Of a stretch of 49,380 nt of DNA, positions 4,026 to 38,157 are shown in pieces. Within the stretch, counting starts at the first letter, position 1. Each line of letters opens with the position of its first letter. Location: positions 1 to 49,380 of the forward strand of contig JAICYG010000001.1 in NCBI GenBank assembly GCA_025934335.1. Reading direction: 5' to 3'. Below the pieces are notes generated by a model. It was given only the letters and a program-made list of their open reading frames with translations, was not told the DNA's origin and ran no database searches. The translations under genes and the position numbers were made by a program. The stretch comes from Thermoleophilia bacterium (lineage in GTDB: Bacteria > Actinomycetota > Thermoleophilia > Gaiellales > Gaiellaceae).

Positions 4026-4400
4026 GTGCTCACCGCGCAGCAGCGGCGGTCGCTCGACCTGATCCTCGTCGTCTGGACGGCGCTCTGGATCCTCGTCGGC
4101 TTCGCGGTCTGGAGCGAGGTACGCGGGCTAAAGCCGCTCGCCGACACCGTCGCCGTCGCGGGCCGATCGCTCGACGACACGGCCGAGGCGCTCCGCGGCT
4201 TCTCCGGCATCCCGCTCGTCGGCGGGAGCCTCGAGCGCGTCGCCGCCGACGCCCACGCGACCGCGGTCAGCGCACGGGTCAGCGCGCGCCAGGGCCGTGA
4301 CAGCGTCAACCGGCTCGCGATCATCCTCGGCATCGCGGTCCCGGCGGTCGCGATCCTGCCACTCGCCCTCGCCTACGCGCTGCTCCGCCTCCGCCGGTGA
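4026..4400 (+). CDS. small two-TM membrane protein (124 aa), partner of the MMPL gene
   Basis: GTG start and two hydrophobic segments (LDLILVVWTALWILVGFAVW and LAIILGIAVPAVAILPLALAYALL). GTGA stop/start overlap with the MMPL gene at 4397-4400. Confidence 0.6.
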   Translation: MLTAQQRRSLDLILVVWTALWILVGFAVWSEVRGLKPLADTVAVAGRSLDDTAEALRGFSGIPLVGGSLERVAADAHATAVSARVSARQGRDSVNRLAIILGIAVPAVAILPLALAYALLRLRR

Positions 4401-6493
4401 CCCGCGCCGCAGCCTGGCTCGTCGCGCGCCTCGGCATCCTCGTCGTCCCGGCGTGGATCGTCGCGGCGCTTGCCGCCGCCCACTTCCTGCCCGGAATTTC
4501 CCAGAGCGGCGGCGGCGCGCTCGGCGGCCTCGTCCTGAAGCACTCGCCGGCGGTCGAGACGCAGCAGCGCGAGGCTCGCCTCTTCGGCAACACGCTCCTC
4601 ACGCGCTTCGTCGTCGTCCAGCACGCGAAGGGGCGCTTCACCGCGGCGCAGGTCAACCGCACACTCGACCTGGCGCGCCGCGTCGACCGCGGCGAGAACC
4701 ATCGGTTCCGCTACCTGCGCATCGCCGCCCCGATCGTCGACCCGCACCGCACGACCAGCGTCACGTACCTCTACTTCACGCGCGAGGCGTCGAACGACCA
4801 GGCCCTCGACGTCGCGCACGAGTACGCGAACGCACTTCGCCCACCGGGCCTCCGCGCCGGCCCGATCCTCGCCCGCGACGCCGAGTTCAGCCAGATCCAG
4901 CACTCGCTGCCGTGGGTGACCCTCGCGACCGTCGGGCTGATCGTGCTCGTGCTCGTCCTCTCCTTCCGCGCGGTCGTACCGCCGCTGCTCGTGCTCGCGA
5001 CCGCCGGGATCGCGTTCGTGATCGCCGTGCACGTGCTCGGCTGGCTGGCGGAGCGGCGGGGGCAGGCCGTGCCGAAGGAGGTCGAGCCGGTGCTCGTCGC
5101 GCTCCTGCTCGGCCTCGTCACCGACTACTCGATCTTCTTCCTCGCCGGCGCCCGGCGCCGCCTCGCCGAGGGCGCCGGGCGCATCGCCGCCGCCGACGGC
5201 TCCGCGCGCGACAACCTGCCGATCATCGTCACGGCCGGGCTGATCGTGGCGCTCGGCTCGCTCAGCCTCACCGTCGGGCATCTCGACATCTTTCGCTCGT
5301 TCGGCCCCGGAATGGCACTGACGGTCGTCGTTGCCCTCGCGGTCGCGACCACCCTCATCCCCGGTGCGCTCGCGCTGCTCGGCCCACTCGCCTTCTGGCC
5401 GACCCTCCGCCGCGAGAAGCCACCCGACGGCAACCGGTTCTGGCGGTTCGTCACGGCGCGCCCCGTCTCCGCCGTCGTCGCGATCGTGATCGTCGCAGGG
5501 CTGCTCGCCGCCGCGGCCGGGCTGCTGCAGACGCGGCTCGGGTTCACGATCGTGCGCGGCCAGCCGGACGGTGCCGAGGTGAAGCGCGCGCAGGAGAACG
5601 TCCAGCCCGCGTTCCCGGCCGGGATCACCGCGCCGACGCTGCTGCTCCTCGGCGGGCGCGACCTCGGCAGGAAGTCGAAGGCGATCGCCGCGCTCCGCAC
5701 GGAGGTGTCTCACGTCCCCGGCGTCGCGTTCGCGCTCGCGAGCGGCGAGCTCCCGCGCGGCGTCTTCGTCTCGAAGGACGGCAGGACCGCGCGCTTCCTC
5801 GTCGTGCTACGGCCGGAGGCGCTCGACGCACGCGCGATCGACGTCCTCCGGCGACTGCGCGGCCGCATGCCGGAGCTGCTGCGGCGCGCGGGCCTCCCCC
5901 ACGCGACCGCGTCGTTCACCGGCGACACCGCGATCGCCGAGGAGACGGTGACCTCGATCCGAGGCGACGCCGCGCGCGTCGGTCTCGTCGTGCTCGCGGT
6001 GAACCTCGTGCTGCTCGCGCTCTTCCTGCGTGCGCTCTGGGCGCCGCTGTACCTGCTCGGCGCGAGCGTGCTCGCGGTCGGCGCGGCGCTCGGCCTGACG
6101 ACGTGGATCATGCAGCGCGGCCTCGGCCACGACGACGTCACGTACTACGTGCCGTTCGCCGCCTCCGTGCTGCTCCTGTCGCTCGGCTCCGACTACAACG
6201 TCTTCGTCGTCGGCCGCATCTGGCACAGCGCGCGCACGCGGCCGCTGCGCGAGGCGATCGCGATCGAGGCCCCACAAACGTCGTCCACGATCACGACGGC
6301 CGGGCTGACGCTCGCGGGCAGCTTCGCGCTGCTCGCGATCATCCCCCTGCGCCCGATGCGAGAGCTCGCGCTGGCACTCGCGCTCGGGATCCTGCTCGAC
6401 ACGTTCCTCGTGCGCAGCCTGCTCGTCCCGTCCCTGCTCGCGCTGTTCCGGCGGCGCGAGCAGGGACGCGAGTTAGACGCTACGAGACCGTGA
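4397..6493 (+). CDS. MMPL-family (RND superfamily) membrane transporter
   Basis: 698 aa in two blocks of about 6 TM, each preceded by a soluble loop. The overall architecture and sequence feel are typical of MMPL proteins. Translationally coupled to the upstream small membrane protein. Confidence 0.75.
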   Translation: MTRAAAWLVARLGILVVPAWIVAALAAAHFLPGISQSGGGALGGLVLKHSPAVETQQREARLFGNTLLTRFVVVQHAKGRFTAAQVNRTLDLARRVDRGENHRFRYLRIAAPIVDPHRTTSVTYLYFTREASNDQALDVAHEYANALRPPGLRAGPILARDAEFSQIQHSLPWVTLATVGLIVLVLVLSFRAVVPPLLVLATAGIAFVIAVHVLGWLAERRGQAVPKEVEPVLVALLLGLVTDYSIFFLAGARRRLAEGAGRIAAADGSARDNLPIIVTAGLIVALGSLSLTVGHLDIFRSFGPGMALTVVVALAVATTLIPGALALLGPLAFWPTLRREKPPDGNRFWRFVTARPVSAVVAIVIVAGLLAAAAGLLQTRLGFTIVRGQPDGAEVKRAQENVQPAFPAGITAPTLLLLGGRDLGRKSKAIAALRTEVSHVPGVAFALASGELPRGVFVSKDGRTARFLVVLRPEALDARAIDVLRRLRGRMPELLRRAGLPHATASFTGDTAIAEETVTSIRGDAARVGLVVLAVNLVLLALFLRALWAPLYLLGASVLAVGAALGLTTWIMQRGLGHDDVTYYVPFAASVLLLSLGSDYNVFVVGRIWHSARTRPLREAIAIEAPQTSSTITTAGLTLAGSFALLAIIPLRPMRELALALALGILLDTFLVRSLLVPSLLALFRRREQGRELDATRP

Positions 6494-13118: not shown

Positions 13119-16041
<2,923 letters not shown>

Positions 16042-16065
16042 CCTTCGATACTAGATTGAAGACCG

Positions 16066-19000
16066 GTGGCGGCCGTCGCGATCCGTGGGACGACGTACCC
16101 CGTCGTCCTCCCGAAGCTGAAAGACCCCCGGCTGCACCTTGCGGCGACGATCACGTCCCTGCAGGTGCTGGGCCAGGTGGCGTTCCATTTCCGGCTCTCG
16201 ATCGCGCAGATCCTCGTCTCGCTCGGGACCTGCGCCGTGATCGAGATCGTGATCACGCTCCGCACGCAACGGGTGCTGATGTGGCCCGCGAGCGCGCTCC
16301 TGACGGCGAACGGAGTCGCGTTCGTGCTGCGCGTCCCCGGGGAGCGCCACGGCGACTGGTGGAGCCTGCGCGACTGGTGGCTCTTCGTCGCCGTCTCGGG
16401 CGGCTCGCTGCTCTCGAAGCACGTGATCCGCTGGCGCCGCGAGCACGTCTTCAACCCGTCGAACATCGGGCTCGTCGTCTGCTTCCTGGCGCTCGGGCGC
16501 ACACGGGCGGAGCCGCTCGACTTCTGGTGGGGGCCGATGTCGTGGTGGATGGCGCTCGCGCTCGTGATCATCGTCACCGGCGGCTTCGCGATCCTGACGC
16601 GCCTCGCGTTGCTCCGCGTCGCGCTCTCGTTCTGGGCGGCGTTCGCGGCCGGCATCGCCGTGCTCGCGCTGACCGGCCACGCGATGACGGCGCGCTGGCA
16701 CCTCGGCCCGATCACGGGGTTCCACCTCTGGTGGGTGCTCGTGACCTCGCCCGAGGTGCTCGTCTTCCTCTTCTTCATGATCACCGACCCGAAGACGGCG
16801 CCGCGCGACCCCCGCAGCCGCCTCGTCTACGGGACGGCGCTCGGGGCAATCGCGGCGCTGCTGATCGCCCCGACGACCACCGAGTTCGCGGCGAAGGTCG
16901 CGGTGCTCGGCTCGCTCGCGGTCGTGTGCCTCGCGATCCTCGTGCTGCGCGTGGTGCCGGTCCGCGTCGACCGCCGGCGCGGAGCGATCGCGGCCGCGGC
17001 AGGCCTGGCAGCGTTCGCGGGTGTGGCGGCGTTCGCCAACAACGGCGCCCCCGCATCCGTTGCGGCGCCGCGCGCGGTGGGCGCGCTGCCGCCGATCGAG
17101 ATCGACCCGTCGCCGGGCGTGCAGACGCAGCTCGACCGCGCGACCGCGGAGCAGATCGCCTACGGCCTCGTGCGCGCACGGCACGTGGGCACGGGGGCGA
17201 CTGTCCGGATCCACCTCGTTCCCGGCACCGACCAGTCGCCGCCGAGCGCGGTGGCGCGGCTCGCGGGCGCGACCTACCGGCTGAGCCAGACCGGCGCCGG
17301 CGCGTGGGCGCTCGGCGGCGCGAAGGCTCCTCCCGCCGCGCCCCGGCCCACCAGCGGCTCGCTCGGCGACACGCGCCTCGTGAACGTCGCTCCCTCCGTC
17401 GGGCTCGACTTCCGCCAGGGCTCGTTCCGCTTCGGCGTCTCGAACGAGACGAAGTCGATGATGGGCGGCGGCGTCTGCTGGCTCGACTACAACGGCGACG
17501 GACGCCTCGACCTGTTCGCCGTCAACTCGTACGCGAGCGCCGACGCCGACCGCTGGGCCGCGCACGGCGGACTGCCGACGAGCGAGCTCTTCGAGAACGT
17601 CGGCCGGAGCTTCCGCAACGTGACCCACGAGACGCACGCCGGTCTCGCCGTCCAGGGCGACGGGTGCGTCGCCGGCGACCTGAACGGCGACGGTCGCACC
17701 GATCTCGTGGTGACGACGACGAGCGGCGTCGAGATCCTCTGGAACCGCGGCGGCACGTTCCGGGCGGCGTCGCTGCCGGCGACCGGCTGGTACGCGGGCG
17801 CCGCCCTCGCCGACGTGAACGGCGACGGGCGCCCCGACCTGTTCGTCGCCGGCTACGCCGACCCGAACCGACCGGTGCCGGGCTCGTATGCCGGCTTCCC
17901 GACGAACCTGGCCGGCGTTCGCGACCTGCTCTTCCTGAACGAGGGCGGCGGCCGCTTCCGCGAGGCGGGCGTCGCCGCGGGCCTGGAGGCAGCCGGGTTC
18001 CGTCACGGGCTCGGCGCCGAGTTCATGGACGTGAACGGCGACGGCCGCCCCGACCTCTACGTGGCGAACGACGAGGACCCGAACGACCTCTACGTGAACG
18101 TGCCGTGGCCGGGCGGCGCGGCGGCGGACCCTGCCGGCCTCGGCTTCCGCTTCGAGGAGCGCGGCAACGCGTCGGGGGTCGACGACCCGTTCGCCGGGAT
18201 GGGGATCGCGACGTTCGGCGACCGGCTGCTCGTCACGAACTCGCGCGGCGAGCCGTCGGCGGCCTACGACCGCCGGGGCACCGAGCGGTTCGCGAACGAC
18301 CGACCGAGCGTCGACCCGGCGCTCGGCAGCGACTTCGCCGGCTGGGGCGCCGCCTTCGTCGACCTGCGGAATGACGGCCGACCTGCGCTCGTGCTCGCGG
18401 CGGGCGCGATCCCCGTCACGAGCCTCGAGCACGACGCCGAGGCGGTGCGCGTGCTGGCACCGGCGGCGGGACGCACGCTCGGCGATGCGAAGAGCGTCGT
18501 CTCGACCGGTTTCCGGCTGAACGGGCGCGGGCTCGCCGTCGCCGACGCCTGGAACGACGGCGGCCAGGAGATCGCGATCAACACGATCGGCGGCAAGCTC
18601 GTCCTCCTGCAGCCGAGCAGGCCCGGTGGGCACTGGCTCGACGTCGCGCTGACCCGCTTCTCACCGGGCGCGGTCGTGACCGCCGTGCTCCCCGGGGGCC
18701 GGCGCCTGCAGGCGGAGGTGCACGCCGGAAGCAGCTACCTCTCGTCCGAGGACCCGCGCGTGCATTTCGGGCTCGGCCGGGCGACGCGCGTCGAGCGGCT
18801 CGTCGTGCGGTTCCCGTCGGGCGCCGTAACTCGGCTCGACGGCGTCCCCGCGAACCGGGTCGTCAAGGTGCTCGCGCCGGACGCCATCCGGCGCGCGTCA
18901 CGGGCAGCGCCCGCCTCCTGCACCCGCACGACGCACGATTCGGTGGCCCGCCGCTGGAACGACACGGCGGTCGAGGTGCTCCGGCTCGGGAACGCGCCCG

Positions 19001-20058
19001 ACCCGGTGGCCGCGCGCGACCTCTACGACCTCTCGCTCGTCGTCAAGCAGGCGTACGACCGCACGCCGCCCGCTCGAGCGGACGCGGCGATCAGCTACGC
19101 CGCGTACCGGCTGCTCCTCTGGCAGGCCTCGCACCTCGAGAACCTCTCGCGGACGTTCGCGCTGCTCGAGAGCCGGCTGCGCGCGCTCTGCTACTCGCCG
19201 ACGGTCACACGCGGCACCGGGAATCGCCTCGCAGCCGCCATGATCGCCTCGACCCGCGGCGACGGCACCAACGAGACCCTTCACTACGCCGACCCGGGCT
19301 ACACGCCGCGGAACCAGCCGCTGATCGTCGCGCAGCCGGGGTCGACGGTGCACGACGCGACGTTCTGGCAGCCGCTCGCGCTCGCGCAGTTCTCGCCGCG
19401 CGGCTCGGGCGCGGTCCCGGCACGGGTGGAGCCGTTCGTCGGCTCGCAGTGGGGCTCGGTGCGCACGTTTGCCGGCAAGGTCCGCGTGAAGCCGCCGGCG
19501 CTCGGCGACCCGTCCGGCAAGCGCTACCGGGAGGCGGCGCTGGCGGTGCTCAGGGCCACCGCGGCGGCGGGCGCCGCGAGCCGTGCCCCCACCACGCCGA
19601 CCGGGCTCAACACCGGCCTGCCGAGCCGTGGCCTGAAGGGCGACGTCGAGCTCGACCTGAGGCTGAACGCGGCCCTCAACGACGTGGCCGTCTCGGTCTA
19701 CGGCGCGAAGCGCGAGTACGAGGCGCCGCGCCCGATCTCGATCATCCGCTACCTCGCCTTCAACGACCAGCTGCCGCTCGTGGCCGGGCTGACGCGGAAG
19801 GCCGGCGACACGATCGAGGTGCGCCTGCGAGGCCGCTGGGTGCGCGGCGACCGGTGGACGCCGCCCGCCCCCACGCCGGCGTCGCCCGGTTACCCGTCGG
19901 CGAGCGCGGCGTACGAGGCGGCAGCGGCCCGGGTGCTCCGGCGGGCGCCACGCGCCGACGTCGGCGTCGCGCAGGGGATCGAGCTGCCGCAGGACGCCGC
20001 CGCAGGCCGGGCGATCGGAGCCGCGGTCGCGCGCCGCGTGCTCGCGAAGCTCCGCTAA
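16066..20058 (+). CDS. 1330-aa fusion: RnfD/NqrB-like membrane domain + FG-GAP/ASPIC (CRTAC1-like) domain + degenerate PAP2/vanadium-haloperoxidase-like domain
   Basis: aa 1-300 are multi-TM with FNPSN and FFMITDPKTAP (compare FFMATDPV in NqrB/RnfD). There are four NGDGR-x-DL FG-GAP repeats (DYNGDGRLDLF, GDLNGDGRTDLVV, ADVNGDGRPDLFV, MDVNGDGRPDLYV), then an ASPIC/UnbV-like segment HAGSSYLSSEDPRVHFGLG. The C-terminal domain carries KREYEAPRP (K-x6-RP). Confidence 0.75.
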   Translation: MAAVAIRGTTYPVVLPKLKDPRLHLAATITSLQVLGQVAFHFRLSIAQILVSLGTCAVIEIVITLRTQRVLMWPASALLTANGVAFVLRVPGERHGDWWSLRDWWLFVAVSGGSLLSKHVIRWRREHVFNPSNIGLVVCFLALGRTRAEPLDFWWGPMSWWMALALVIIVTGGFAILTRLALLRVALSFWAAFAAGIAVLALTGHAMTARWHLGPITGFHLWWVLVTSPEVLVFLFFMITDPKTAPRDPRSRLVYGTALGAIAALLIAPTTTEFAAKVAVLGSLAVVCLAILVLRVVPVRVDRRRGAIAAAAGLAAFAGVAAFANNGAPASVAAPRAVGALPPIEIDPSPGVQTQLDRATAEQIAYGLVRARHVGTGATVRIHLVPGTDQSPPSAVARLAGATYRLSQTGAGAWALGGAKAPPAAPRPTSGSLGDTRLVNVAPSVGLDFRQGSFRFGVSNETKSMMGGGVCWLDYNGDGRLDLFAVNSYASADADRWAAHGGLPTSELFENVGRSFRNVTHETHAGLAVQGDGCVAGDLNGDGRTDLVVTTTSGVEILWNRGGTFRAASLPATGWYAGAALADVNGDGRPDLFVAGYADPNRPVPGSYAGFPTNLAGVRDLLFLNEGGGRFREAGVAAGLEAAGFRHGLGAEFMDVNGDGRPDLYVANDEDPNDLYVNVPWPGGAAADPAGLGFRFEERGNASGVDDPFAGMGIATFGDRLLVTNSRGEPSAAYDRRGTERFANDRPSVDPALGSDFAGWGAAFVDLRNDGRPALVLAAGAIPVTSLEHDAEAVRVLAPAAGRTLGDAKSVVSTGFRLNGRGLAVADAWNDGGQEIAINTIGGKLVLLQPSRPGGHWLDVALTRFSPGAVVTAVLPGGRRLQAEVHAGSSYLSSEDPRVHFGLGRATRVERLVVRFPSGAVTRLDGVPANRVVKVLAPDAIRRASRAAPASCTRTTHDSVARRWNDTAVEVLRLGNAPDPVAARDLYDLSLVVKQAYDRTPPARADAAISYAAYRLLLWQASHLENLSRTFALLESRLRALCYSPTVTRGTGNRLAAAMIASTRGDGTNETLHYADPGYTPRNQPLIVAQPGSTVHDATFWQPLALAQFSPRGSGAVPARVEPFVGSQWGSVRTFAGKVRVKPPALGDPSGKRYREAALAVLRATAAAGAASRAPTTPTGLNTGLPSRGLKGDVELDLRLNAALNDVAVSVYGAKREYEAPRPISIIRYLAFNDQLPLVAGLTRKAGDTIEVRLRGRWVRGDRWTPPAPTPASPGYPSASAAYEAAAARVLRRAPRADVGVAQGIELPQDAAAGRAIGAAVARRVLAKLR

Positions 20059-21316
20059 CGCCCGCTGCGCGCCTGCAGCCGCACCGCGACGGTGTCGAGC
20101 ATGACAGCGCCGAGGAGCACGAGGCCCGTGATGATGTAGATCCAGCCGTTCGACACGCTCAGCGTGTTGAGGCCGTTCTGCAGCGTGCCGATCAGGATCG
20201 CGCCGAGGAGGGCGCCGCGCACCTCACCGCGCCCGCCGAAGAGGCTGACGCCGCCGATCACGGCGGCCGCGATCGCGTTCAGCAGCAGGTTCCCGGGCGG
20301 GAACGTCAGCGCGACCGAGTTGACCTGCGCGGCGAAGATGATGCCGCCCATCGCGGCGGTCGCGCCCGAGATCATGAAGACGACCACGCGGATCCGCGAG
20401 ACGTTGATGCCCGCGCGGCGGGCGGCCTCGGCGTTCCCGCCGACCGCGTAGACGTGCCGGCCGAAGGTCGTCCACTTCGCGAGGAACGTCAGCAAGACGA
20501 AGAACAGGATGATGATCACGCCCGCGAGCGGCAGGCCCTCGGGCGTCGAGATGATCTTGCCGTGGTTCGCGATCGCGACCGTCCCGAAGACGGCGATGCC
20601 GATGCCGACCGCCTTCAGCGCGACGAGCGGCCAGTTCTGCTGGGCGATCTGGGTGCCGCGCGCCACGACGAGCTTGTAGAGGATGCTGATCGGATAGAGC
20701 GCCGTGAGGATGGCGGCGATGATCCAGCCGAGCCAGTGCGAGAAGATGTAGGCGTCGGTGTAGTTGATCCAGCGGTCCTGGATGATGATCGTGCCGCGCT
20801 GCTCGAGCTTGTTCAGGATCACGCCCTGCCAGATCAGGAAGCCCCCGAGCGTGACGACGAACGACGGCACCCCGATGAACGCCACGATCGAGCCCTGGAC
20901 GCCGCCGATCAGGGCGCACGCCGCGATCGCGACCAGCATCGCGAGGATCCCGTTCATCTGCCAGCTCGACCCGGGCAGCTGGAGCTCGGCCACGATCAGC
21001 GCGCCGATCCCCGCCAGGTAGCCGATCGAGAGGTCGATCTCGCCGAGCAGGAGGACGAAGACGACGCCGTACGCCAGCATCGCGGTGCCGGCGGTCTGCG
21101 TGATCAGGTTGACGAAGTTGACGGCCGTGAAGAAGTTCGTCGCCGTCAGCCCGAAGATGATGACGACGAGGATCTCGCCGACGATGATCGGGATCGCGCC
21201 GAGGTTGCCGGTGCGGAGGTTGAGCCAGGCACGGTGGTAGAGGCCGGCGACGCCGCCGGGGAGCTGCTCCTCCTCGGGCGGCAGGGCCCGGTCGGGGCCG
21301 ACGACGTCCGCCGTCG

Positions 21317-21320
<4 letters not shown>
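20055..21320 (-). CDS. CUT2-type sugar ABC transporter permease (XylH-like)
   Basis: 421 aa and multi-TM, with HVYAVGGNAEAARRAGINV as in XylH/RbsC-type permeases. The GTG at 21320 forms a GTGA overlap with the ATPase stop. Confidence 0.85.
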
Positions 21321-22096
<776 letters not shown>

Positions 22097-22110
22097 TGGG
22101 CGGAAGGGAC

Positions 22111-22140
22111 GTCGGAGGCGTCCCTGAGGACGCCTCCGAC
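22111..22140 (-). terminator. intercistronic perfect stem-loop between the SBP and ATPase genes (attenuator or mRNA-stabilising element)
   Basis: gtcggaggcgtcc-ctga-ggacgcctccgac forms a 13-bp perfect stem with a 4-nt loop, in the 61-nt gap after the SBP stop (22158). No U tract. Confidence 0.5.
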
Positions 22141-22157
22141 GCGTGACCTGCGAGATG

Positions 22158-23240
22158 CTACTTGCAGTACTTCTTGTACTGGCCGACGCAAACGTCGCTC
22201 CGCTTCAGGAACTTGTCCGTGAAGAGGCGCTTGTAGTTGGCCTTCGTGATCCACACGACCGGAAGCGCGAGCGTCGGCTCGTTGCGCGCGCCGTTCTTCC
22301 GCACCGTGTTCGTCTTCGGCTTGTGGCCCTTGAGGAGCGAGACCGCTGCCGCAGCGGCGGCATTGGCCTCGTCCGGCACGTACTTGTAGACCGTGCCGCT
22401 CTGCCAGCCGGAGAGGATGTACTGGATTCCCTGCACGCTCGCGTCCTGACCGGAGAGCGGCAGCGGCTTCAGGTGCTTCGCCTTCAGGTCTGCGACGACC
22501 GCGCCGGCGATGTTGTCGTTCGCGGCGAGAACGCCGTCGATCTTGTTGCTCGTCTTGACGAGCATCTGGCTGAAGATGGTCGCCGCGTTGTTCGCGTCCC
22601 AGTCGGGGACGAACTGCGTCGGGCCCTTCTTCAGCGTCTTCTTCTTGAACAGCGGGTTGAAGACGGCGTCGTTGCCGCTCTTGAACCAGAACGCGTTCTG
22701 GTCGGTCTGCCCGCCCCAGAGCTCGGCCACGACACCACCCGGGTACGTGCCGCGTGCCTTCATCGCGCGGATGACCCCGTTCGCCTGCGCCTGGCCGACC
22801 GCCTTGCCGTCAAACGTGACGTACACCGAGGCGGTGCCGCCGGTGACCTGGCGGTCGTAGTCGATCGCCTTGCCGCCCTTCGAGGTGAACAGCTTCTCGA
22901 TCGAGGCGGCCGAGCCGTTGTCGAGGGCGGTCTCGATGACCACCTTCGCACCGGCCGCGAGACACGCCTGCGCCTGCGCCTTCTGCTTCAACGGGTCGTT
23001 GAGAGCGTTGTTGATCGAGGCCTTCACGCCTGCCTTGGCGAACGCGGCCTTCATCGCCGGAGCGTCGAACTGCACCCAGCGGACGGACGACTTCGTGTCC
23101 GGCAGCAGGACGCAGACGTCGACGTTGGCAGTCCGGTGCTTCGTGCTCGCGGTCGCCGTCGCGACGACGAACACGGCGAGTCCGGCGACTACTGCCACGC
23201 TGAGGCCGATCGCCGTCGACCTCCGGAAGACTTTCCTCAA
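22158..23240 (-). CDS. sugar ABC transporter substrate-binding protein (XylF/RbsB-like, periplasmic-binding type I)
   Basis: TTG at 23240 follows AAGGAGAG. There is a signal/anchor segment (AIGLSVAVVAGLAVFVVATATAS). The Lys-rich PBP1 body carries DVCVLLPD, ANDNIAGAV and similar motifs. Confidence 0.8.
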   Translation of the reverse strand: MRKVFRRSTAIGLSVAVVAGLAVFVVATATASTKHRTANVDVCVLLPDTKSSVRWVQFDAPAMKAAFAKAGVKASINNALNDPLKQKAQAQACLAAGAKVVIETALDNGSAASIEKLFTSKGGKAIDYDRQVTGGTASVYVTFDGKAVGQAQANGVIRAMKARGTYPGGVVAELWGGQTDQNAFWFKSGNDAVFNPLFKKKTLKKGPTQFVPDWDANNAATIFSQMLVKTSNKIDGVLAANDNIAGAVVADLKAKHLKPLPLSGQDASVQGIQYILSGWQSGTVYKYVPDEANAAAAAAVSLLKGHKPKTNTVRKNGARNEPTLALPVVWITKANYKRLFTDKFLKRSDVCVGQYKKYCK

Positions 23241-23326
23241 GTTCTCTCCTTCGTTTGACGGGGGGTCAGTGTCAACCCCCAACGCTGTCGCATCCGGCGC
23301 CGCGAGTCAAGGGTAGGCTCGTATCC
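23241..23326. promoter_or_regulatory. divergent control region between the SBP gene and the isomerase-xylB genes
   Basis: TTGAC(23255-59)-N11-GTCAA(23271-75) inverted repeat. A TAGGCT (TANNNT) hexamer at 23314-19 sits 7 nt before ATG 23327, and there is no SD. Confidence 0.4.
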
Positions 23327-27443: not shown

Positions 27444-28151
27444 ATGAAAAGGCTCCGAGTCGTGTCGTTGAACCTCTGGGGGCTCTCCCTGTGGCGCGAA
27501 GTGGCCGACCTTTGCGAGGCGGAATGCGTTGACGTTGCCTGCCTTCAGGAGGTCGATAGACACTACCGAGACAGAAGCCGGTGGGACGACGTGCCCGCGC
27601 GAGCTGCGGATGAGTTGGGCTGGGAGTGGGCTTATGCACCTGCGATCTTTCTGCCCGATACGACCGGGACGCGCCAGTACGGCAATGCGGTGCTCACGCG
27701 CCTTCCGCTACTCGGCCGACGCGAGCACGCACTGGCTCCCGAAGTGGAGTGGACGGAACCGGACGACAGCCTCACCGAGCCCCGGATTCTTCTCGAAGCC
27801 GTCATTGAGGCGCCGTGGGGTGGCCTTCTGCGGATCGGCTGCACTCATCTTGCTGATGTCGTCAATCCGGAGGACGAGTGGATCGGGCGCCGTCAAGTCG
27901 CCGACATCCTGCGCGTCGTGCGGGATCCCGCATGGACTCATGTGCCGACCGTCCTGACGGGCGACTTCAATGCGCGGGTCGGCTCCGAGTTACTGGGTGA
28001 TCTCGAGACATCCCTTCGTCTCGTGGCGGTTGAACAGCCGCATGTCGACCACCTCTTCATCTCGGATGGCCTCCGTGCCACAGAGGCTCGCCTACTTGGC
28101 CCGTGCGGGTCAGACCATCTGCCCCTTTTGTGCGACCTCGTTCCCGCCTAA
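27444..28151 (+). CDS. endonuclease/exonuclease/phosphatase (EEP) family protein
   Basis: VVSLNLWG, ACLQEV, GDFNA and the terminal SDHLPL motifs. No signal peptide. It is the first gene with the altered codon usage. Confidence 0.75.
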   Translation: MKRLRVVSLNLWGLSLWREVADLCEAECVDVACLQEVDRHYRDRSRWDDVPARAADELGWEWAYAPAIFLPDTTGTRQYGNAVLTRLPLLGRREHALAPEVEWTEPDDSLTEPRILLEAVIEAPWGGLLRIGCTHLADVVNPEDEWIGRRQVADILRVVRDPAWTHVPTVLTGDFNARVGSELLGDLETSLRLVAVEQPHVDHLFISDGLRATEARLLGPCGSDHLPLLCDLVPA

Positions 28152-28223
28152 AAGCCAGAGGAGCGCCGTTACCAGGTTTCCAGCTTTGCCTCGTCCCAGG
28201 AGCCAGTCTCGGCCGAAGGTGGG

Positions 28224-29108
28224 TCAGTCAAGGGCACTTTGCAGTTCGGAAGCCGTGGGCATCGCCGCGGAACAGGCGACGCGTGATGCGACGATCGCCC
28301 CCGCGATCGTGCCTCTTCGGACGGCTTCGACGAGCGATCGCCCCCTCAGGAGCGATTCGCCGAGCGCCGCCGCGAAGGCGTCCCCCGCGCCGAGCCCGTT
28401 GAGAACGGTCACAGCGCGGCCTTCGACATCGGTGCGCTGACCGTCCTCGAACACGGTCGCACCGCGCTCACCGCGCTTCAACACGAGGGTCGCCACCTCA
28501 GGAAGAGATGCCGCGGCAACCTCTTCCTCGTTGCCGATCACCACGTCCGCGGCGGCGACAGCATCACGAACAACGGCCGGGAACGCCGCCACGTCGTCCC
28601 AGAGATCAGGCCGCCAGTCGAGGTCGAAAATCGTCACCCCTCGGTGTGCGCGTAGCGCGCCGAGAGTCGTCTCGCGGCTCGGAGACTGCGCGAGCGCGGT
28701 CGCGGTGGCGTAGAGGATTCTCGCGTCGGCGACCTCCTCCTGGTCGAAGTCTTCCGTCTCGAGCCGCCAGTCAGGAGCCGTCGGCTTGCGATAGAAGGTG
28801 ATCGGAAAGCGATCAGGTGGCCAGATCTCGCAAAACGTGGGCGGTGTCTGCCAGTAGGGGTCGACGCCGAGGAACCGCACGTCCACTCCCTGCTCGGCAA
28901 GCCACCGGCGGATGAACACCCCGTGGCCGTCAGCACCGACTCGCGAGACGATGGCGGCGTCAACCCCGAGGCGCGCCAGACCGGTTGCCACATTCCCGGC
29001 GAATCCTCCGACGTAGCGTCTAAACGTCTCGACCTCCGACAACGGCGTCTCGAACTGCTCCGGGTACAGGTCGACCCCGACACGCCCGAGCACTGCTGCG
29101 TCGATCAA
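28224..29108 (-). CDS. iolC: PfkB kinase, 5-dehydro-2-deoxygluconokinase (IolC)-like
   Basis: VLGRVGVDLYP, TFRRYVGGFAGNVATG, ATALAQSPSRETTL, DLDWRPDLW, GAGDAF and the terminal AMPTASEL parallel B. subtilis IolC as I recall it. TTG 29108 sits 6 nt after GAGGAG; an alternative TTG is at 29177. Confidence 0.65.
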   Translation of the reverse strand: MIDAAVLGRVGVDLYPEQFETPLSEVETFRRYVGGFAGNVATGLARLGVDAAIVSRVGADGHGVFIRRWLAEQGVDVRFLGVDPYWQTPPTFCEIWPPDRFPITFYRKPTAPDWRLETEDFDQEEVADARILYATATALAQSPSRETTLGALRAHRGVTIFDLDWRPDLWDDVAAFPAVVRDAVAAADVVIGNEEEVAAASLPEVATLVLKRGERGATVFEDGQRTDVEGRAVTVLNGLGAGDAFAAALGESLLRGRSLVEAVRRGTIAGAIVASRVACSAAMPTASELQSALD

Positions 29109-29286
29109 AGGAAGCTCCTCTCGTCGCGTCGGGCTTCGCGACAACTCGTGCCCGCGGCCCAGGCGGCTTCGCCGCAACTGAACGCCTCGGTCTGCACACC
29201 ATGCGAACGCGCAATGATGAGAGCGCCAGGTTCTGCCTGGCTCGTCACGACGCGCGTGGCCGCCAGCGCCGCCGGCCTCAACCTCG

Positions 29287-30096
29287 TCATTGCGGAAATG
29301 CCCCCACGAAGGAGCATGCGGCGGCTCCGGCCCGTGAACCCTCCTCCATGCATTCACGGAGCGTCCGGCCTGCGAGCCGAACGGCCAAGAACGACCCGAT
29401 GAACGCGTCCCCAGCACCACAGGTATCGATGACGTCTACCGCCCGAAGTGCCGACATCTCTATGACCTCCCCCGCCTCGCTCGCCAAGCTCCCGCGCGAG
29501 CCGCGCAGCACGACCGCACAGCGGACGCCTGCCCGATGAAGCTGGCTCACCACGCGCCACGGCTCGTCTCTCGGAGAGGACACGAACGCGACGTCCAGGT
29601 CGGCAAGGGCCGTTCCCAGGCCATGGTCGGAGAAGTCGTACGAAAGGGTTGCGCCGGCGTCCGCTGCAATTCGCCAGAGCTCACTCAGGTGCCTCGGTAG
29701 CCGCGTCGCATGAATATGGCATGCGCCTACCGCAATTTCGGCTAGATCTGCAGGAGGCGAGAACGCATCGGTGATCGTGTACTCCTCGCGAACGAAGCGG
29801 CGCTCGCCGTCAGTGGCGAGAGCGATTTCCGTGACGGCCGTGGGAAGCGCGCCGTCGCGCACGACGCGGCTGATGTCGACGTTCTTCTTTCTCAACGTGG
29901 CCAGCACCCTGTCTCCCTCGACATCGCGTCCGACCGCCCCGAAATAGGCAGTCTCCACGCCTCGGGAAGCGAGGGCGACCGAAACGTTGGCGCAGCTGCC
30001 ACCTACGAGTTCACGGTCGACCGGTGGCAGATACCGATCAAGGCAGTTGTCTCCAATACAGATGACGGCCCGATGGCGACCATTCAGGGCTCGCAT
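29287..30096 (-). CDS. PfkB kinase, fructoselysine/fructosamine 6-kinase (FrlD)-like
   Basis: ICIGDNCLDRY, GGSCANVSVAL, VDISRV, YDFSD, LDVAFVS and VIDTCGAGDAFIGSFL resemble E. coli FrlD motifs as I recall them. 269 aa. Confidence 0.6.
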   Translation of the reverse strand: MRALNGRHRAVICIGDNCLDRYLPPVDRELVGGSCANVSVALASRGVETAYFGAVGRDVEGDRVLATLRKKNVDISRVVRDGALPTAVTEIALATDGERRFVREEYTITDAFSPPADLAEIAVGACHIHATRLPRHLSELWRIAADAGATLSYDFSDHGLGTALADLDVAFVSSPRDEPWRVVSQLHRAGVRCAVVLRGSRGSLASEAGEVIEMSALRAVDVIDTCGAGDAFIGSFLAVRLAGRTLRECMEEGSRAGAAACSFVGAFPQ

Positions 30097-30135
30097 TCAC
30101 ACCGCCGCGGCTCACGAGTAGGTAGAGAAGACAAC

Positions 30136-30942
30136 TCAGTCCGCGCGCGACGGTAGCGGTACAAGTTCCAGCCCCCGTCGCCGGAATATCGCAGCGCAGT
30201 CGAGACCGTGGCGCCTCAGGAACGGCACCGCGCGGAGAGCCGCTCCGGCGGTCGCCGGGACGTGCGCATCTGACCCGAGGCTCGCCCATGCCCCCTCACG
30301 GGCGATGCTCGCAATGAGCGCGGCGACGAGATCAGGGCGAACACTCATGTCGTTCCCGTTCACCTCGACGGCGACCCCGTGCCTCACCGCCGCGCGGGTG
30401 ATCTCGTCGAGCATCTTCGACAGGTTGGGCGGCTGGCCGGGAACGGAGAAGCCGAGCCGTACAGGGTGCGCAAGCACGTCATAGCGGCCGCTCGCGGCCG
30501 CGGCGACCTGGAGCTCTGCGTAGTCGCGCCATACGCCCGTCGGTTCATCCACGATGCGTGTCTCCTCGATCCCGGAATCATCGGACAGCACGTGAACTGA
30601 TCCGACGATCACGTCCCATGCCGGTGCGGACGGATCGACAACCTGTTCAAGGGCTCGCTCGTAGTCATCGTGGAGCGGACGCGCGTCAAGCTCGAGCCCC
30701 ACTCTCACCTCGATCGGGGCGACGCCTCGGGCATCGCTGATTGCGTCCAGATACGCCTGCCTTGCCAGGGGCTGGCCCTCGAGCGTCCACCGGCTCACCA
30801 GGTACGCGATCGTGTCGCGGACTTCGGACAGATGCTGCGCGTGCTCCGTGAAGGCGATGGTGTCGACGCCGTTCGCGGCGGCGGCGGCCGCCATCGTGCG
30901 CGCGTCCGACATGAGAAAGTGGTTGTGGTTGTCCGCGATCAG
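30136..30942 (-). CDS. PHP-domain phosphoesterase (HisJ/histidinol-phosphatase-like); non-canonical start inferred
   Basis: The first ATG is at 30912, but the in-frame upstream codons read LIADNHNHFL, which is the PHP D-x-H-x-H motif, followed by SD...GVDTIAFTEHA. Only CTG (30942), ATC or ACG are available before the upstream stop at 30964-66. Confidence 0.6.
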   Translation of the reverse strand: MIADNHNHFLMSDARTMAAAAAANGVDTIAFTEHAQHLSEVRDTIAYLVSRWTLEGQPLARQAYLDAISDARGVAPIEVRVGLELDARPLHDDYERALEQVVDPSAPAWDVIVGSVHVLSDDSGIEETRIVDEPTGVWRDYAELQVAAAASGRYDVLAHPVRLGFSVPGQPPNLSKMLDEITRAAVRHGVAVEVNGNDMSVRPDLVAALIASIAREGAWASLGSDAHVPATAGAALRAVPFLRRHGLDCAAIFRRRGLELVPLPSRAD

Positions 30943-32210
30943 CGTCTGATCCTCTGGGCCTCGTCATTCCGCCGGGCATGTGCTCCGTCGTTCAGCAGCA
31001 CCGCCCGCAGCGGCCTTGCTGGGTCAGCGAGATCGACCGATGACGGACATGAACCGCGCCCGATGGCGAGGACGGCAAGACGGATGTCCTTGGCAACGGA
31101 ATCGCCCTCTCCGATGGCACTCGCCGAGACGAGCCTGCCGTCGCTCGCGAGATCGAACCGGATCTCAACCCCGTCCTCTCGCACACGCAGGACTTCTCGC
31201 GCTCCCAGACTCGGAACCCCTGCGATCTGCAGCGTCAAGTCGTACTGATCCGACCAGAACCACGGAACAGCCGTGTAAGGCCGTGAGGCACCGAGAAGCG
31301 CAAGCGCGGCGGCATCGCCTTGGTCGACGGCGTTGCGCCACGACTCGAGACGCAGGCGGGCGCAATCGGCGAACGGCAAAGGAAACGAACAGCAGTCTCC
31401 TGCGGCGAAAATGGCCCCGTCGGACGTCGCGAATCGGCTGTCGACGACGATCCCCGCTTCTGTTCGAAGTCCCGCAGCGCCGGCGAGGTCCGTATTCGGT
31501 CGTGCGCCGACCGCGGCGATGACCACGTCGGCGACAAATGCGTCCGAGTCGTGTACCTCCACAGCGAAACGCCGCCCCGCGCGCCGTACGGCTGCGACCC
31601 TGGCACCACACCGGATATCCACCCGCTCGCGGCGGTGCCGTGCCGCGACGACCGAAGCTATCGACGCGGGCACCAATCGCTCGAGCACATGGAACGCCTG
31701 CTCGAGGACCGTGACGGAGCAACCGCGCAGGGCAGCGCACGCCGCGATCTCGAGGCCAAGGAATCCACCTCCGATGACCACAGCTGTCATTCCCGGCTGC
31801 AGCTGGTCCCTCAATCTGAGTACGTCTTGCCAGGTGCGAAGTCGAAGCGCATGTTCGCCGCCGGGGACGGAGAGGGACGAGGCTCTCGCGCCGGTTGCAA
31901 TCAACAGGCGGTCGTACGACATCTCTCGACGCCCTTCGAAGAGAACACGGCCGGCCCGACGGTCGATCGCCTCGATGCGGCCGTAGACGAACTCGATGCT
32001 CGCAGAGCGCAGCGACCCGAGGACGCCGCCGCCGGGCGGCCCGGCCGTGGCATCCCCAAGGGCCGCCTTTGAAAGTGGAGGGCGTTCGTACGGTGCGAAG
32101 GGATCTGAGTCCACAACGCTGATCGGCCCGTCGAAACCACAGGCGCGCAAGGCGAGAGCGGCTCGCGTTCCGCACTCTCCCCCGCCGATGACGACTATGC
32201 GACGCCCCAT
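30939..32210 (-). CDS. FAD/NAD(P)H-dependent ferredoxin reductase (pyridine nucleotide-disulfide oxidoreductase family)
   Basis: VVIGGGECGTRAA (FAD GxGxxG), YERPPLSK, VVIGGGFLGLEIAA (NAD site), and AAGDC. 423 aa from ATG 32210. Confidence 0.85.
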   Translation of the reverse strand: MGRRIVVIGGGECGTRAALALRACGFDGPISVVDSDPFAPYERPPLSKAALGDATAGPPGGGVLGSLRSASIEFVYGRIEAIDRRAGRVLFEGRREMSYDRLLIATGARASSLSVPGGEHALRLRTWQDVLRLRDQLQPGMTAVVIGGGFLGLEIAACAALRGCSVTVLEQAFHVLERLVPASIASVVAARHRRERVDIRCGARVAAVRRAGRRFAVEVHDSDAFVADVVIAAVGARPNTDLAGAAGLRTEAGIVVDSRFATSDGAIFAAGDCCSFPLPFADCARLRLESWRNAVDQGDAAALALLGASRPYTAVPWFWSDQYDLTLQIAGVPSLGAREVLRVREDGVEIRFDLASDGRLVSASAIGEGDSVAKDIRLAVLAIGRGSCPSSVDLADPARPLRAVLLNDGAHARRNDEAQRIRR

Positions 32211-32221
32211 TTCGGGTGGCG

Positions 32222-32542
32222 TCAGTCGATGAACACGTAGACGGTGCCGTCGTCGACACGTGTGCGATACGTGCGGAGATCGATGATGGCGGGCGCGCCC
32301 TTCGCTTCTCCGGTTCGATAGTCGAAGCGTCCGTTGTGTCTTGGGCACTCGATGATCGAGCCCATCACAAGCCCGTCGCACAAGCGTGCCCTCTCATGGG
32401 TGCAGTGTCCTTCGGTTGCATAGAAGCTCCCGTCGGGCGCGCGGTAGAGCGCGTAGTCGCCGCCGGCATGATCGAAGGGAACGACATCTTCGAACTCCAC
32501 GTCGTCAACAGCGCAAACTGCGATCCAGGTCGAGGCGCTCAC
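32222..32542 (-). CDS. Rieske [2Fe-2S] ferredoxin
   Basis: 106 aa with the C-x-H ... C-x2-H pattern (GHCTHE ... IECPRHNG). GTGA overlap with the upstream gene. Confidence 0.85.
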   Translation of the reverse strand: MSASTWIAVCAVDDVEFEDVVPFDHAGGDYALYRAPDGSFYATEGHCTHERARLCDGLVMGSIIECPRHNGRFDYRTGEAKGAPAIIDLRTYRTRVDDGTVYVFID

Positions 32543-33621
32543 CCGGAAAGCGCCGACGGAATCGACGGGGGGGTTCGGTACGGATGCGCCCCAAGAGGGA
32601 GTTCACGGTGGATGTAGTACGTCTGGTCGCGCAGCTGGCGGATCACCGCGGGGACGATCTCGCGATATGCGGCAAAGAGAGACGGAGAAGCTGGAACGAG
32701 GTCGTGCTTCACCGCCGCGTGCAAAGCCGGCAGCTTGTGGTATGGCACCAGCGGGAACATGTGGTGCTCGACGTGGTAGTTCATGTTGAGGTAGAGGAAC
32801 CGGAAGATCGGGTTCATCAAGACGGTGCGCGTGTTCAGTCGGTGGTCAAGGAAGTCTTCGCCCAAACCCGAGTGCTGAGTCAGGACAAAGAGTTGGCCGA
32901 GAAACGCACCGTAGAAGCGAGGCCCGAGAACAAGTAGGAACGGGAGAGGCGATGCGAACGCGATACACGCAGCGATCATTGCGGCGTAGATCGCGAGCCA
33001 CACGCGCGCCGTCCGGAAGACCTTCCTCAGTTCGGTCGCCGGCAGGAACGACGCTTCCTCGGACGTGATACGGCCCGTGGCGTGGTAGAGGACGCGGGCG
33101 AGCATCATCGGGACGTAGACCAGCCCGAAGAAGTTCGCGATGATGCGCACCAGCCGCGCCGGCCTCATTACATCGATCTCAGGGTCGCGACCGACGACCA
33201 GCGTGTCGGTGTGGTGGCGCGCGTGACTCCACCGCCAGACCGTCGGCTCGAGCATGTTCATGAAGGAGCCGAGTTGATACCCGAAGGCGTTCAACCAGCG
33301 CGTGCGGAACGCGGTGCCATGTCCGTACTCATGCCAGCGTGCATCCGCACCCGATCCGTACAGAAGACCGTAAACGGCGAAGCAAGGAATCGCCCGCCAT
33401 GTCCCGTAAGACAACACGCCGAGCGCGCCGGAACCGGTGAGCCCACCCAGCCACAGGACAAGGTCGATCAACGCTCGACGATCGGAACGCCCCATGAGCT
33501 CCCGAAGGCGTGGACGGGGAATCGCACTACGAAACCAATCCGCGCCGGCAAGACCACCCTCGACGGCCCTCTCGCCTCGTTTGCCGTCGAGGCGGTACTC
33601 GTCGAGATGCTCTCTACCCAT
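32539..33621 (-). CDS. membrane fatty-acid-desaturase-superfamily di-iron enzyme (three His boxes)
   Basis: HEYGH, HARHH and YHVEHHMFPLVPYHKLP His boxes with flanking TM segments. ATG 33621 overlaps the upstream stop by 8 nt; an alternative ATG is at 33639. Confidence 0.8.
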   Translation of the reverse strand: MGREHLDEYRLDGKRGERAVEGGLAGADWFRSAIPRPRLRELMGRSDRRALIDLVLWLGGLTGSGALGVLSYGTWRAIPCFAVYGLLYGSGADARWHEYGHGTAFRTRWLNAFGYQLGSFMNMLEPTVWRWSHARHHTDTLVVGRDPEIDVMRPARLVRIIANFFGLVYVPMMLARVLYHATGRITSEEASFLPATELRKVFRTARVWLAIYAAMIAACIAFASPLPFLLVLGPRFYGAFLGQLFVLTQHSGLGEDFLDHRLNTRTVLMNPIFRFLYLNMNYHVEHHMFPLVPYHKLPALHAAVKHDLVPASPSLFAAYREIVPAVIRQLRDQTYYIHRELPLGAHPYRTPPSIPSALSG

Positions 33622-35717: not shown

Positions 35718-36409
35718 CAGTAGGCACCCGGGCCTTCGAGCAACAACACCAGGCGGCGGATGCCTGCGTCCGGCGCAGGCCATGTTCCGCAGCCGCGGAA
35801 GGCCTCTGCATACCCGCAGCCACGCTGACCACCGCGCAGACGCGCGAGCGTGTCCGTCAATTCGACAAGGCTCTGCCCGTGGAGCAGCGTGAGCTGCGAC
35901 TCGTGCGCTCGTACCATTGCTCGCCTGATCTCGATCGCGTCATCGATGTCGAGCCATACGTGCGGCTCGAAGTCGAGCCCTTGCTCGCTGTCCATGAAGA
36001 CGAGGTCAATCGTCCGTTCCAGCGGTTGCTGGTCGGCTCCTCCCGCCGCGGCAGCCGCGATCCGCACATCCAGCGCCAGCGCCGCGGCCGCACGATGATC
36101 GACGTGATAGTCGTTCGGTGAGTGTGTGATCAGCAGGTTCACACGTAACGTTCGGAGGAGCGCGATGAGGGTCCCGCGTGGATCGTGCTCCCCCAGGTCG
36201 TGAACTCCGCTTAGTCCACCTAGTTGTGCCGCCCGTCTCGCTTCAGCCAGTCGAATCGCGCGCGTCTGATCGCCCGACTCACCGGAAATCCCCGTTTCAC
36301 CGCTAGTCAACAGGCCCACGTGGACCGGCAGCCCGCGACGGGCAAGCCGAGCGAGCGTCCCTCCGCAGGCACCCTCGACGTCGTCAGGATGCGCGCCGAG
36401 CGCCAGCAC
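35717..36409 (-). CDS. LmbE/PIG-L-family zinc N-deacetylase
   Basis: LALGAHPDDVEG and YHVDH (HxDH) motifs. GTG 36409 sits 6 nt after GAGGAG. The longer ATG 36511 start would bury a 13-bp hairpin and overlap the SBP gene. Confidence 0.8.
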   Translation of the reverse strand: MLALGAHPDDVEGACGGTLARLARRGLPVHVGLLTSGETGISGESGDQTRAIRLAEARRAAQLGGLSGVHDLGEHDPRGTLIALLRTLRVNLLITHSPNDYHVDHRAAAALALDVRIAAAAAGGADQQPLERTIDLVFMDSEQGLDFEPHVWLDIDDAIEIRRAMVRAHESQLTLLHGQSLVELTDTLARLRGGQRGCGYAEAFRGCGTWPAPDAGIRRLVLLLEGPGAY

Positions 36410-36456
36410 TACCGTCTCCTCAACTGACCATGCAGTCAGTTTCCTCTCCTTTCTGT

Positions 36457-36486: not shown

Positions 36487-36494
36487 GTCGGCTC

Positions 36495-38135: not shown

Positions 38136-38157
38136 TCTGCCGTCTCCTTTCTGTCGC

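Follow-up and report, generated by a model that had tools for sequence, protein, structure and literature searches.

Gene structure and coding evidence

The window analysed here is a stretch of 49,380 nucleotides from a Thermoleophilia bacterium of the Gaiellaceae (contig JAICYG010000001.1 of assembly GCA_025934335.1, forward strand). At positions 16066–20058 it carries a gene for a 1330-residue protein, in which a membrane domain of RnfD/NqrB fold, a CRTAC1-type propeller with an ASPIC module and a helical domain of vanadium-haloperoxidase (VHPO) fold follow one another in a single open reading frame (ORF). The gene and its parts were mapped as listed below, with residues numbered in amino acids (aa) and the evidence in brackets (GC3, G+C content at third codon positions; AF2, AlphaFold model; pLDDT, predicted local distance difference test; FMN, flavin mononucleotide).

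16066..20058, + strand: single coding sequence, 1330 aa, GTG start, TAA stop (ORF list, translation, GC3, genome orthologues)
16066..16956, + strand: RnfD/NqrB-fold membrane domain, aa 1–297, about 10 transmembrane helices (Pfam, hhalign, AF2, Foldseek)
16450..16464, + strand: FNPSN motif, aa 129–133, aligned to FNPAM of RsxD, with N130, P131 and N133 invariant in the wider family
16510..16512, + strand: E149, opposite the FMN-bearing Thr of RsxD (hhalign, family column)
16771..16803, + strand: FFMITDPKTAP motif, aa 236–246, aligned to FFMATDP of NqrB (340–346) and FFIATDP of RnfD
16957..17055, + strand: Arg-rich loop (VPVRVDRRR), predicted cytoplasmic, then an extra transmembrane helix 11, aa ~303–327 (hydropathy, loop charges, AF2 helix)
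17083..17340, + strand: small alpha/beta ectodomain, aa ~340–425 (AF2 secondary structure, pLDDT about 90)
17446..18615, + strand: CRTAC1-type FG-GAP beta-propeller, aa 461–850 (FG-GAP_3 at 98.7 bits, Foldseek, four DxNGDGxxD motifs)
18616..18885, + strand: UnbV_ASPIC domain, aa ~851–940 (Pfam, 67.6 bits; aligned to CRTAC1 9etn_A)
18913..20055, + strand: VHPO-fold helical domain, aa 950–1330 (PDB profile matches, Foldseek)
19708..19734, + strand: K1215-x6-R1222-P1223, motif 1 of the PAP2/VHPO superfamily, conserved, with R1216, R1222 and R1228 invariant
19963..19995, + strand: degenerate motif 3, with G1300 in place of Arg, E1306 in place of His and D1310 kept (9l8x alignment, column counts)

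ORF length was not taken as evidence by itself, since the window is of high G+C content (64–76%) and holds long ORFs in several frames, among them overlapping ORFs of 841 and 860 aa in other frames of this region. The frame at 16066–20058 is unbroken and bears the signature of forward-strand coding, with GC3 at 0.92–1.00 per 150-nt window and G+C at first codon positions above that at second positions. A database protein search returned at least 119 full-length homologues (1277–1455 aa, 60–84% identity) with the same domain set, the named ones being proteins of 'Gaiellaceae bacterium' metagenome-assembled genomes (MAGs). A scan with one genome per GTDB species returned 372 related loci, and the counts of orthologues and loci given below rest on the best 80 of these. 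Except for a few truncated at contig ends, the 80 loci match residues ~1–1330 collinearly, and almost all lie in Gaiellales MAGs. Together, the 119 full-length homologues and the 80 collinear loci rule out a frameshift or an assembly fusion; positions 16066–20058 are one real gene, encoding one polypeptide, conserved across Gaiellales. The GTG start at 16066 is supported by homologues that align from residue 1–6.

The single uninterrupted 1330-aa ORF reported in a first-pass annotation of the window, made by a model from the sequence alone, was thus recovered at exactly its coordinates, and a frameshift or stop codon splitting it, which that annotation had named as grounds for withdrawal, was not seen at the 80 loci. 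The same annotation knew of no described protein with this architecture. For characterised proteins this stands: the literature searched on RnfD-like proteins, UnbV/ASPIC, DUF6851 and Gaiellaceae with RnfD or haloperoxidase contained no study of the three-module architecture, and NCBIfam held no dedicated model for the 1330-aa protein. For the databases it does not, as at least 119 clusters and 80 species-representative genomes carry the architecture, under automatic names ('FG-GAP-like repeat-containing protein' or 'RnfD subunit'). The architecture is neither rare nor unseen; it is annotated in databases, but uncharacterised.

RnfD-only Gaiellaceae proteins of 430–540 aa (P0124, P0130) were considered as a split version of the gene and rejected as artefacts, their loci showing a frameshift-broken orthologue. 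In the long-read MAG assemblies ERZ25039534 and ERZ25039475 (L001 8001–12310; L002 8001–12321) the orthologue is broken into 3–5 ORFs and its neighbours are likewise in pieces; such fragmentation gives rise to false 'stand-alone RnfD' and 'VCPO_2nd-only' proteins in the databases. Some orthologues (49–69% identity) sit on short contigs in MAG bins assigned to Burkholderiales, Acidobacteriota and Verrucomicrobiota (L024, L038, L073, L074, L084), which are most simply explained as mis-binned Gaiellales contigs.

The RnfD/NqrB-fold membrane domain

The N-terminal module of about 300 aa had been described as RnfD/NqrB-like and polytopic, with FNPSN and FFMITDPKTAP motifs, and both the fold and the motifs were found. 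Its score against Pfam NQR2_RnfD_RnfE (PF03116) is 27.6 bits, 0.1 below the gathering score of 27.7, and other members of the membrane-domain family score 21.7–37.2 bits. By hhalign, a domain profile of 53 sequences aligned with E. coli RsxD over aa 36–298 (probability 88%, E 3e-6), the shared motifs being SALLTG, K...FNP and FFxxTDPxT, and D241 pairs with D346 of NqrB in alignment. Against the PDB the membrane-domain profile placed RnfD/NqrB similarity at the edge of detection (E 0.002). The AlphaFold model of aa 1–460 (pLDDT 88, predicted template modelling score 0.84) is confident, and in Foldseek its top 14 PDB matches were all RnfD/NqrB chains, including 8rbq_D (E 2e-5, template modelling (TM) score 0.61) and 7xk3_B, and the next match had E 0.36. 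Among the modules of the protein, the membrane domain is the most conserved, with a mean identity of 77% to 118 homologues, compared with 73% for the propeller and 57% for the VHPO-like domain, which is the least conserved.

RnfD and NqrB bear FMN on a Thr of a periplasmic loop. In the hhalign alignment, 'SQATPLD' of RsxD pairs with 'RAEPLD', which places E149 at the Thr position, and ~46 residues of the preceding loop are absent. Over 53 diverse family members this column holds Glu in 26, Asp in 16, Asn in 6, Ser in 2, Phe in 2 and Ala in 1. The check for a flavinylation motif proposed in the first pass was accordingly negative at the level of sequence, and no conserved [ST]GA[ST] motif was found anywhere in the 1330-aa protein across 119 homologues. 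The sole TGAT, at aa 376–379 in the small ectodomain, was examined as a motif for flavinylation by ApbE and rejected, Ala378 being present in only 6 of the 119. The earlier statement that no other Rnf/Nqr subunit genes are nearby was borne out: Pfam scans of the window genes and tblastn with RsxA/B/C/G/E recovered no RnfA/B/C/G/E or Nqr gene in the 49-kb window, and no Rnf/Nqr partner genes lie beside the seven other family members examined. Because the Thr for covalent FMN and its loop are lost and such partner genes are missing, the module, to judge from its sequence, is not a working RnfD/NqrB subunit of an Rnf/Nqr redox pump. Likeness to RnfD/NqrB (PF03116) thus comprises the ~10-helix fold, the SALLTG, FNP and FFMxTDPxT motifs and the Asp equivalent to NqrB D346; in contrast to RnfD/NqrB, the 1330-aa protein lacks the flavinylated Thr, the periplasmic loop before it and partner subunits, and adds helix 11, an ectodomain of 1000 aa and the family-specific invariant residues E230, E273 and K277.

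A Thr-less domain of this kind might still bind a non-covalent flavin and/or a quinone and pass electrons from the quinone pool to a reaction in the ectodomain. This is favoured by the homology of the membrane domain to NqrB/RnfD, of which NqrB has riboflavin and a quinone site as well. There is also a precedent in an Nqr/Rnf-like flavinylation-associated system of Actinobacteria, the candidate phyla radiation (CPR) and Ktedonobacter, whose RnfD-like subunit is without the flavinylation Thr and has a proposed non-covalent flavin site (doi 10.1101/2024.03.13.584918); that system further comprises a C-terminal cytosolic NqrF-like NAD-binding domain (PF00175), a flavinylated RnfG/NqrC-like partner and ApbE (PMC8238504). 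The protein studied here resembles it as an RnfD/NqrB-like membrane protein outside a full Rnf/Nqr complex that has no flavinylation Thr, but differs in its C-terminus, which is predicted to lie outside the cell, and in its surroundings: Pfam gave no NqrF-like NAD-binding domain (PF00175) in the 1330-aa protein or ten relatives and no ApbE among the scanned window genes, and an FMN-binding (FMN_bind) RnfG/NqrC-like partner and ApbE are absent from the window and the related loci. The 1330-aa protein also holds no CXXCH motif, a redox cofactor site cannot be recognised in its ectodomain, and the chemistry of VHPOs runs without a supply of electrons. A role as electron conduit is considered improbable.

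Topology and the CRTAC1-type ectodomain

Hydropathy and the AF2 helices gave ten helices of the RnfD core, then the VPVRVDRRR loop, then an eleventh helix at aa 303–327. RnfD and NqrB are oriented with both termini inside and the flavin loop outside, and the distribution of Lys and Arg, which are enriched in the loops predicted to be cytoplasmic, including the one before helix 11, agrees with this orientation. Given an RnfD-like orientation and the extra helix, everything after aa ~330 (~1000 residues) is predicted to be extracytoplasmic, placed there by helix 11, and the topology prediction suggested in the first pass thus puts both the propeller and the VHPO-like module outside the membrane. 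The invariant Cys pairs (471/534 and 952/1042) and the calcium-binding motifs are confined to this distal part, which fits such a location. Directly behind the membrane, the linker domain of aa 331–460, within which the small alpha/beta ectodomain is predicted, had no Pfam match at E ≤ 10, and a PDB sequence search with it was empty too.

Residues 461–940 form a full member of the CRTAC1/ASPIC-UnbV kind, as had been noted earlier from at least four FG-GAP NGDG repeats and an ASPIC/UnbV segment. The region has four DxNGDGxxD calcium-binding motifs (aa 474, 538, 583 and 655) and an invariant Cys471/Cys534 pair in the propeller, in addition to the Pfam matches listed above, and its best structural match by Foldseek is murine CRTAC1 (9etn_A; E 5e-20, TM score 0.64). 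As in CRTAC1 (9etn) and bacterial ASPIC/UnbV proteins, an FG-GAP propeller with DxNGDGxxD motifs is followed by UnbV_ASPIC. CRTAC1-type proteins are secreted; in contrast to CRTAC1, the module here has a polytopic membrane domain on one side and a VHPO-fold domain on the other.

The haloperoxidase-fold C-terminal domain

For aa 950–1330 the family profile matched XhnO11 (9l8x, E 1e-13), NapH3, esVHPO (9ptr) and the vanadium iodoperoxidase (VIPO) of Zobellia (4cit) in the PDB, and Foldseek with the C-terminal model returned 9l8x, 8cxl (NapH3), 3w36 (NapH1) and 4usz (Zobellia VIPO). A Cys952/Cys1042 pair is conserved in the domain. Pfam PAP2 (PF01569) had no match in the 1330-aa protein, and Pfam VCPO_2nd reached only 13.3 bits on this domain.

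The vanadate of esVHPO is bound through H496 (esVHPO/CiVCPO numbering), with K373, R380, R490, S427 and S429 holding it in place (doi 10.1101/2025.10.24.684477). The corresponding positions were counted in 55 relatives. Motif 1 is kept, with K1215 in 53/55 and R1222 in 55/55. In the Ser loop, S1278 is present in 45/55 and positions 1279–1280 vary within the family; the window protein itself reads P-S-A-S, as S427-A428-S429 of esVHPO. For motif 3, 'SRVWGGVHF' of 9l8x was aligned to 'AGVAEGIEL', in which G1300 takes the position of the Arg and E1306 that of the His. The column of the vanadate-ligand His holds Glu in 40 relatives, Asp in 12 and Ala, Gln and Gly in one each, with His in none, and that of the R490-equivalent Arg holds Gly in 41, Pro in 8 and Ala in 3. 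Set against the PAP2 motifs KX6RP/PSGH/SRX5HX3D, motif 1 is thus kept, the His of motif 2 is absent, and in motif 3 Arg is replaced by Gly and His by Glu with the Asp kept; a pocket of K1215, R1216, R1222, R1228, S1278, E/D1306 and D1310 is retained in the family.

The domain therefore shares with bacterial VHPOs (XhnO11 9l8x, NapH1 3w36, NapH3 8cxl, esVHPO 9ptr, VIPO 4usz) the fold of two helical bundles, the K-x6-RP Lys and Arg and, in most relatives, the Ser of P-S-x-x, but differs from them in the exchange of His for Glu/Asp and of the Arg490 equivalent for Gly/Pro/Ala, and in being joined to propeller and membrane modules outside any natural-product cluster. Since the vanadate His has become Glu/Asp and its partner Arg Gly, the defining tests of both VHPO and PAP2 fail, and the C-terminal domain, as its residues indicate, is neither a canonical haloperoxidase nor a PAP2 phosphatase; after loss of this His and Arg, by which vanadate or phosphate is held, a redox or halogenating role is not supported. 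Of the PAP2/haloperoxidase-like module described in the first pass, the fold and the conserved K-x6-RP motif stand, but the ligands do not. An active, membrane-anchored vanadium haloperoxidase that makes hypohalous acid at the cell surface, or an active PAP2 phosphatase, would be in keeping with the fold, with K-x6-RP and with the esVHPO-like P-S-A-S of the window protein. Against it count the Glu or Asp at the ligand His in 52/55 relatives, the Gly, Pro or Ala at the Arg490 position, the variable positions 1279–1280 and the Pfam results, and such an enzyme is regarded as extremely improbable.

The wider family of Thr-less RnfD-fold proteins

Residues 1–340 were searched against 1.84 billion cluster representatives, which gave 1417 clusters at E ≤ 1e-3 and 325 at E ≤ 1e-30. 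The commonest architecture in this family is the membrane domain followed by a tail of ~200 aa (500–550 aa in total), and Pfam and PDB sequence searches with the ~170-aa tails of short members were empty. Other members have a linker and FG-GAP/ASPIC (1050–1170 aa), a propeller or BNR domain placed first, or an added beta-helix/NosD-like domain, and the architecture of the window protein recurs in a relative of 1552 aa. In 53 diverse members the residues D20, R22, R89, N130, P131, N133, S228, P229, E230, M238, D241, E273 and K277 are invariant; they sit on both membrane faces and in mid-membrane, with one Glu in the mid-membrane position.

These data bear on the view that the RnfD-fold domain is an inert anchor, which only tethers an ectodomain acting as a structural or adhesive protein of the envelope or matrix, with no catalysis or transport. 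The two candidate catalytic sites have degenerated, evolution is fastest in the VHPO-like part, and the propeller with ASPIC resembles murine CRTAC1, for which we know of no characterised enzymatic role; all this would suit such a protein. However, the membrane domain is the most conserved module and keeps its charged and polar residues invariant on both faces and in mid-membrane across the 53 sequences, and this strongest conservation argues for a function of its own. For anchoring one helix would suffice, where eleven are present, and the cluster of one Lys, three Arg, Ser, Glu and Asp in the VHPO-like pocket is conserved in 55 relatives. The inert anchor is judged rather unlikely.

Two kinds stand out among the genomic contexts of family members. 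In the first, a sugar-type transporter is fused to the RnfD-fold domain or directly next to it, and three superfamilies of such transporters are represented, namely MFS, CUT1 ABC and CUT2 ABC: the domain is fused to an MFS transporter in P0386, a family member lies beside co-directional CUT2 ABC genes (L092 950–7554), an MFS sugar transporter gene overlaps the stop codon of another (L093 7001–11790), and a further one is flanked by SBP_bac_1 and BPD_transp_1 of a CUT1 ABC system (L094 3813–9535). In the second kind, RnfD-like + FG-GAP/ASPIC paralogues lie beside three radical-SAM/SPASM genes (L097 2155–12770) or beside PqqD and methyltransferase genes (L096 425–13852), which suggests a link of these paralogues to peptide-modification clusters. 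At both of these loci and at L090 (5902–11366) and L095 (848–6285), the paralogue is followed by a second FG-GAP/ASPIC gene without a membrane domain. Sugar-transporter adjacency was found in roughly 6/10 independent contexts; as a family-wide rule it was rejected, because it fails in the radical-SAM/PqqD contexts, and it is kept as a hypothesis.

The two radical-SAM/SPASM and PqqD contexts, and the fact that the characterised VHPO-fold relatives NapH1, NapH3 and XhnO11 act in natural-product pathways, would speak for a role in maturation of, export of or immunity to a secreted peptide or secondary metabolite. The paralogues at L096 and L097, however, are without the VHPO-like domain, and at the window locus and the 80 loci orthologous to it the genes are those of sugar catabolism and transport rather than biosynthetic ones, which leaves only a slim chance for this role.

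Genomic neighbourhood and other features of the window

The genes on either side of the 1330-aa gene are:

15655..16041, − strand: HbpS/GlcG-like gene, 128 aa, divergent (24-nt spacer; domain spans residues 4–123)
20055..23282, − strand: sugar-type ABC operon with BPD_transp_2 permease, ABC ATPase and Peripla_BP_4 binding protein, convergent

The gene had been placed between an HbpS-like gene and a sugar ABC operon in the first pass. Both neighbours and the 24-nt spacer were found, but the ABC operon is convergent and hence not co-transcribed with the gene. The TAA stop of the 1330-aa gene (20056–20058) overlaps the stop of the convergent permease (20055–20057, − strand), which leaves no space for a terminator between the two. 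Gene order is largely kept at the 80 orthologous loci: a pair of GFO/IDH/MocA genes comes first, then the HbpS-like gene where present, the 1330-aa gene and the convergent ABC ATPase and binding protein, and genes for a xylose-isomerase-like protein, an FGGY kinase and an SDR follow. The HbpS-like gene is upstream in 55/80 of these loci, and so is frequent, not obligatory. Its 128-aa product is probably cytoplasmic, since the domain fills residues 4–123 and no signal peptide fits; for want of this room the protein was not accepted as a partner of the ectodomain. The divergent spacer (16042–16065) reads ccttcgatactagattgaagaccg. TAGATT stands 8 nt before the GTG at 16066 (+ strand) and TAGTAT 6 nt before the GTG at 16041 (− strand), and going by these letters the 1330-aa and HbpS-like genes may both be leaderless, with overlapping −10 boxes.

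Elsewhere in the window, a large AAA_16 + GerE (LuxR-type) regulator and then an MMPL transporter lie upstream (360–3140 and 4397–6493, both + strand), and sugar-acid genes (FAD-linked oxidase, ILVD/EDD dehydratase, SDR) at 6.6–10.6 kb. Positions 28000–44000 have a G+C content of 0.64–0.66, compared with 0.70–0.76 elsewhere, and a lower GC3; the block holds genes for a PfkB kinase, PHP, a fatty-acid desaturase, GFO/IDH, a PhoX-like protein and SIS, as well as an Opp/Dpp-type ABC system (SBP_bac_5 and two BPD_transp_1), and could represent a foreign island or result from a chimeric join. A single 569-aa ORF at 45629–47338 (− strand) joins CopC, CopD and YtkA-like domains in a copper-handling fusion. 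The window (1–49380) is without tRNA genes, and no Rfam family reached the gathering score in it.

Proposed function and implications

As a working assignment, which is offered tentatively, the 1330-aa protein is read as a surface-displayed binding or processing protein with a functional, channel-like membrane module. The ectodomain would bind or process a substrate from outside the cell, with a carbohydrate or an anionic ligand as the likeliest candidates, in a role tied to nutrient uptake, and the retained Lys/Arg cluster of the VHPO-like pocket would hold the anionic ligand. The RnfD-fold domain would be no inert anchor; it would offer a path for ions or small solutes, built around the family-invariant polar residues on both faces and the mid-membrane Glu. 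The guess at the ligand draws on the Lys/Arg pocket, on the sugar-related gene contexts and on the kinds of partner domain (propeller, BNR and beta-helix); BNR, beta-helix and FG-GAP folds are common among carbohydrate-active proteins.

Several points weigh against this assignment. No experiment or characterised homologue backs any function. The 80 orthologous loci come from close relatives, so that their synteny is a weak argument for a link in function, and the ABC operon in the window is, as described, transcribed towards the gene. Sugar transporters are abundant in soil Actinobacteria, and the independent contexts sampled number ~10, among which two paralogous ones are radical-SAM/SPASM or PqqD clusters and two more hold nothing relevant. 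The conservation of the membrane domain could equally reflect assembly or contacts with a partner.

A bolder form of the idea, which we consider quite unlikely, is that the Thr-less RnfD-fold domain would be an autonomous ion- or quinone-coupled module, feeding or powering chemistry in the attached ectodomains without any Rnf/Nqr partner or covalent flavin, and that the VHPO-like pocket with Glu for His would be a new catalytic or metal site. If this were true, the more than 1400 clusters from soil Actinobacteria would be systems of a new class, in which a single polypeptide connects membrane and cell surface.

Gaiellales are abundant soil Actinobacteria and almost wholly uncultured, and the 1330-aa protein, with its predicted topology, is a conserved and lineage-typical component of their surface. 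Automatic names such as 'RnfD subunit' or 'FG-GAP repeat protein', and motif-based calls of 'haloperoxidase-like', would mislead the metabolic reconstruction of their MAGs. Familiar almost exclusively from flavin-bearing subunits of ion-pumping redox complexes, the RnfD/NqrB fold also exists, in a large family, as a domain of its own that has no flavin site and is joined to ectodomains of various kinds. Should this domain prove to conduct ions, solutes or electrons by itself, the view of RnfD/NqrB evolution and function would change.

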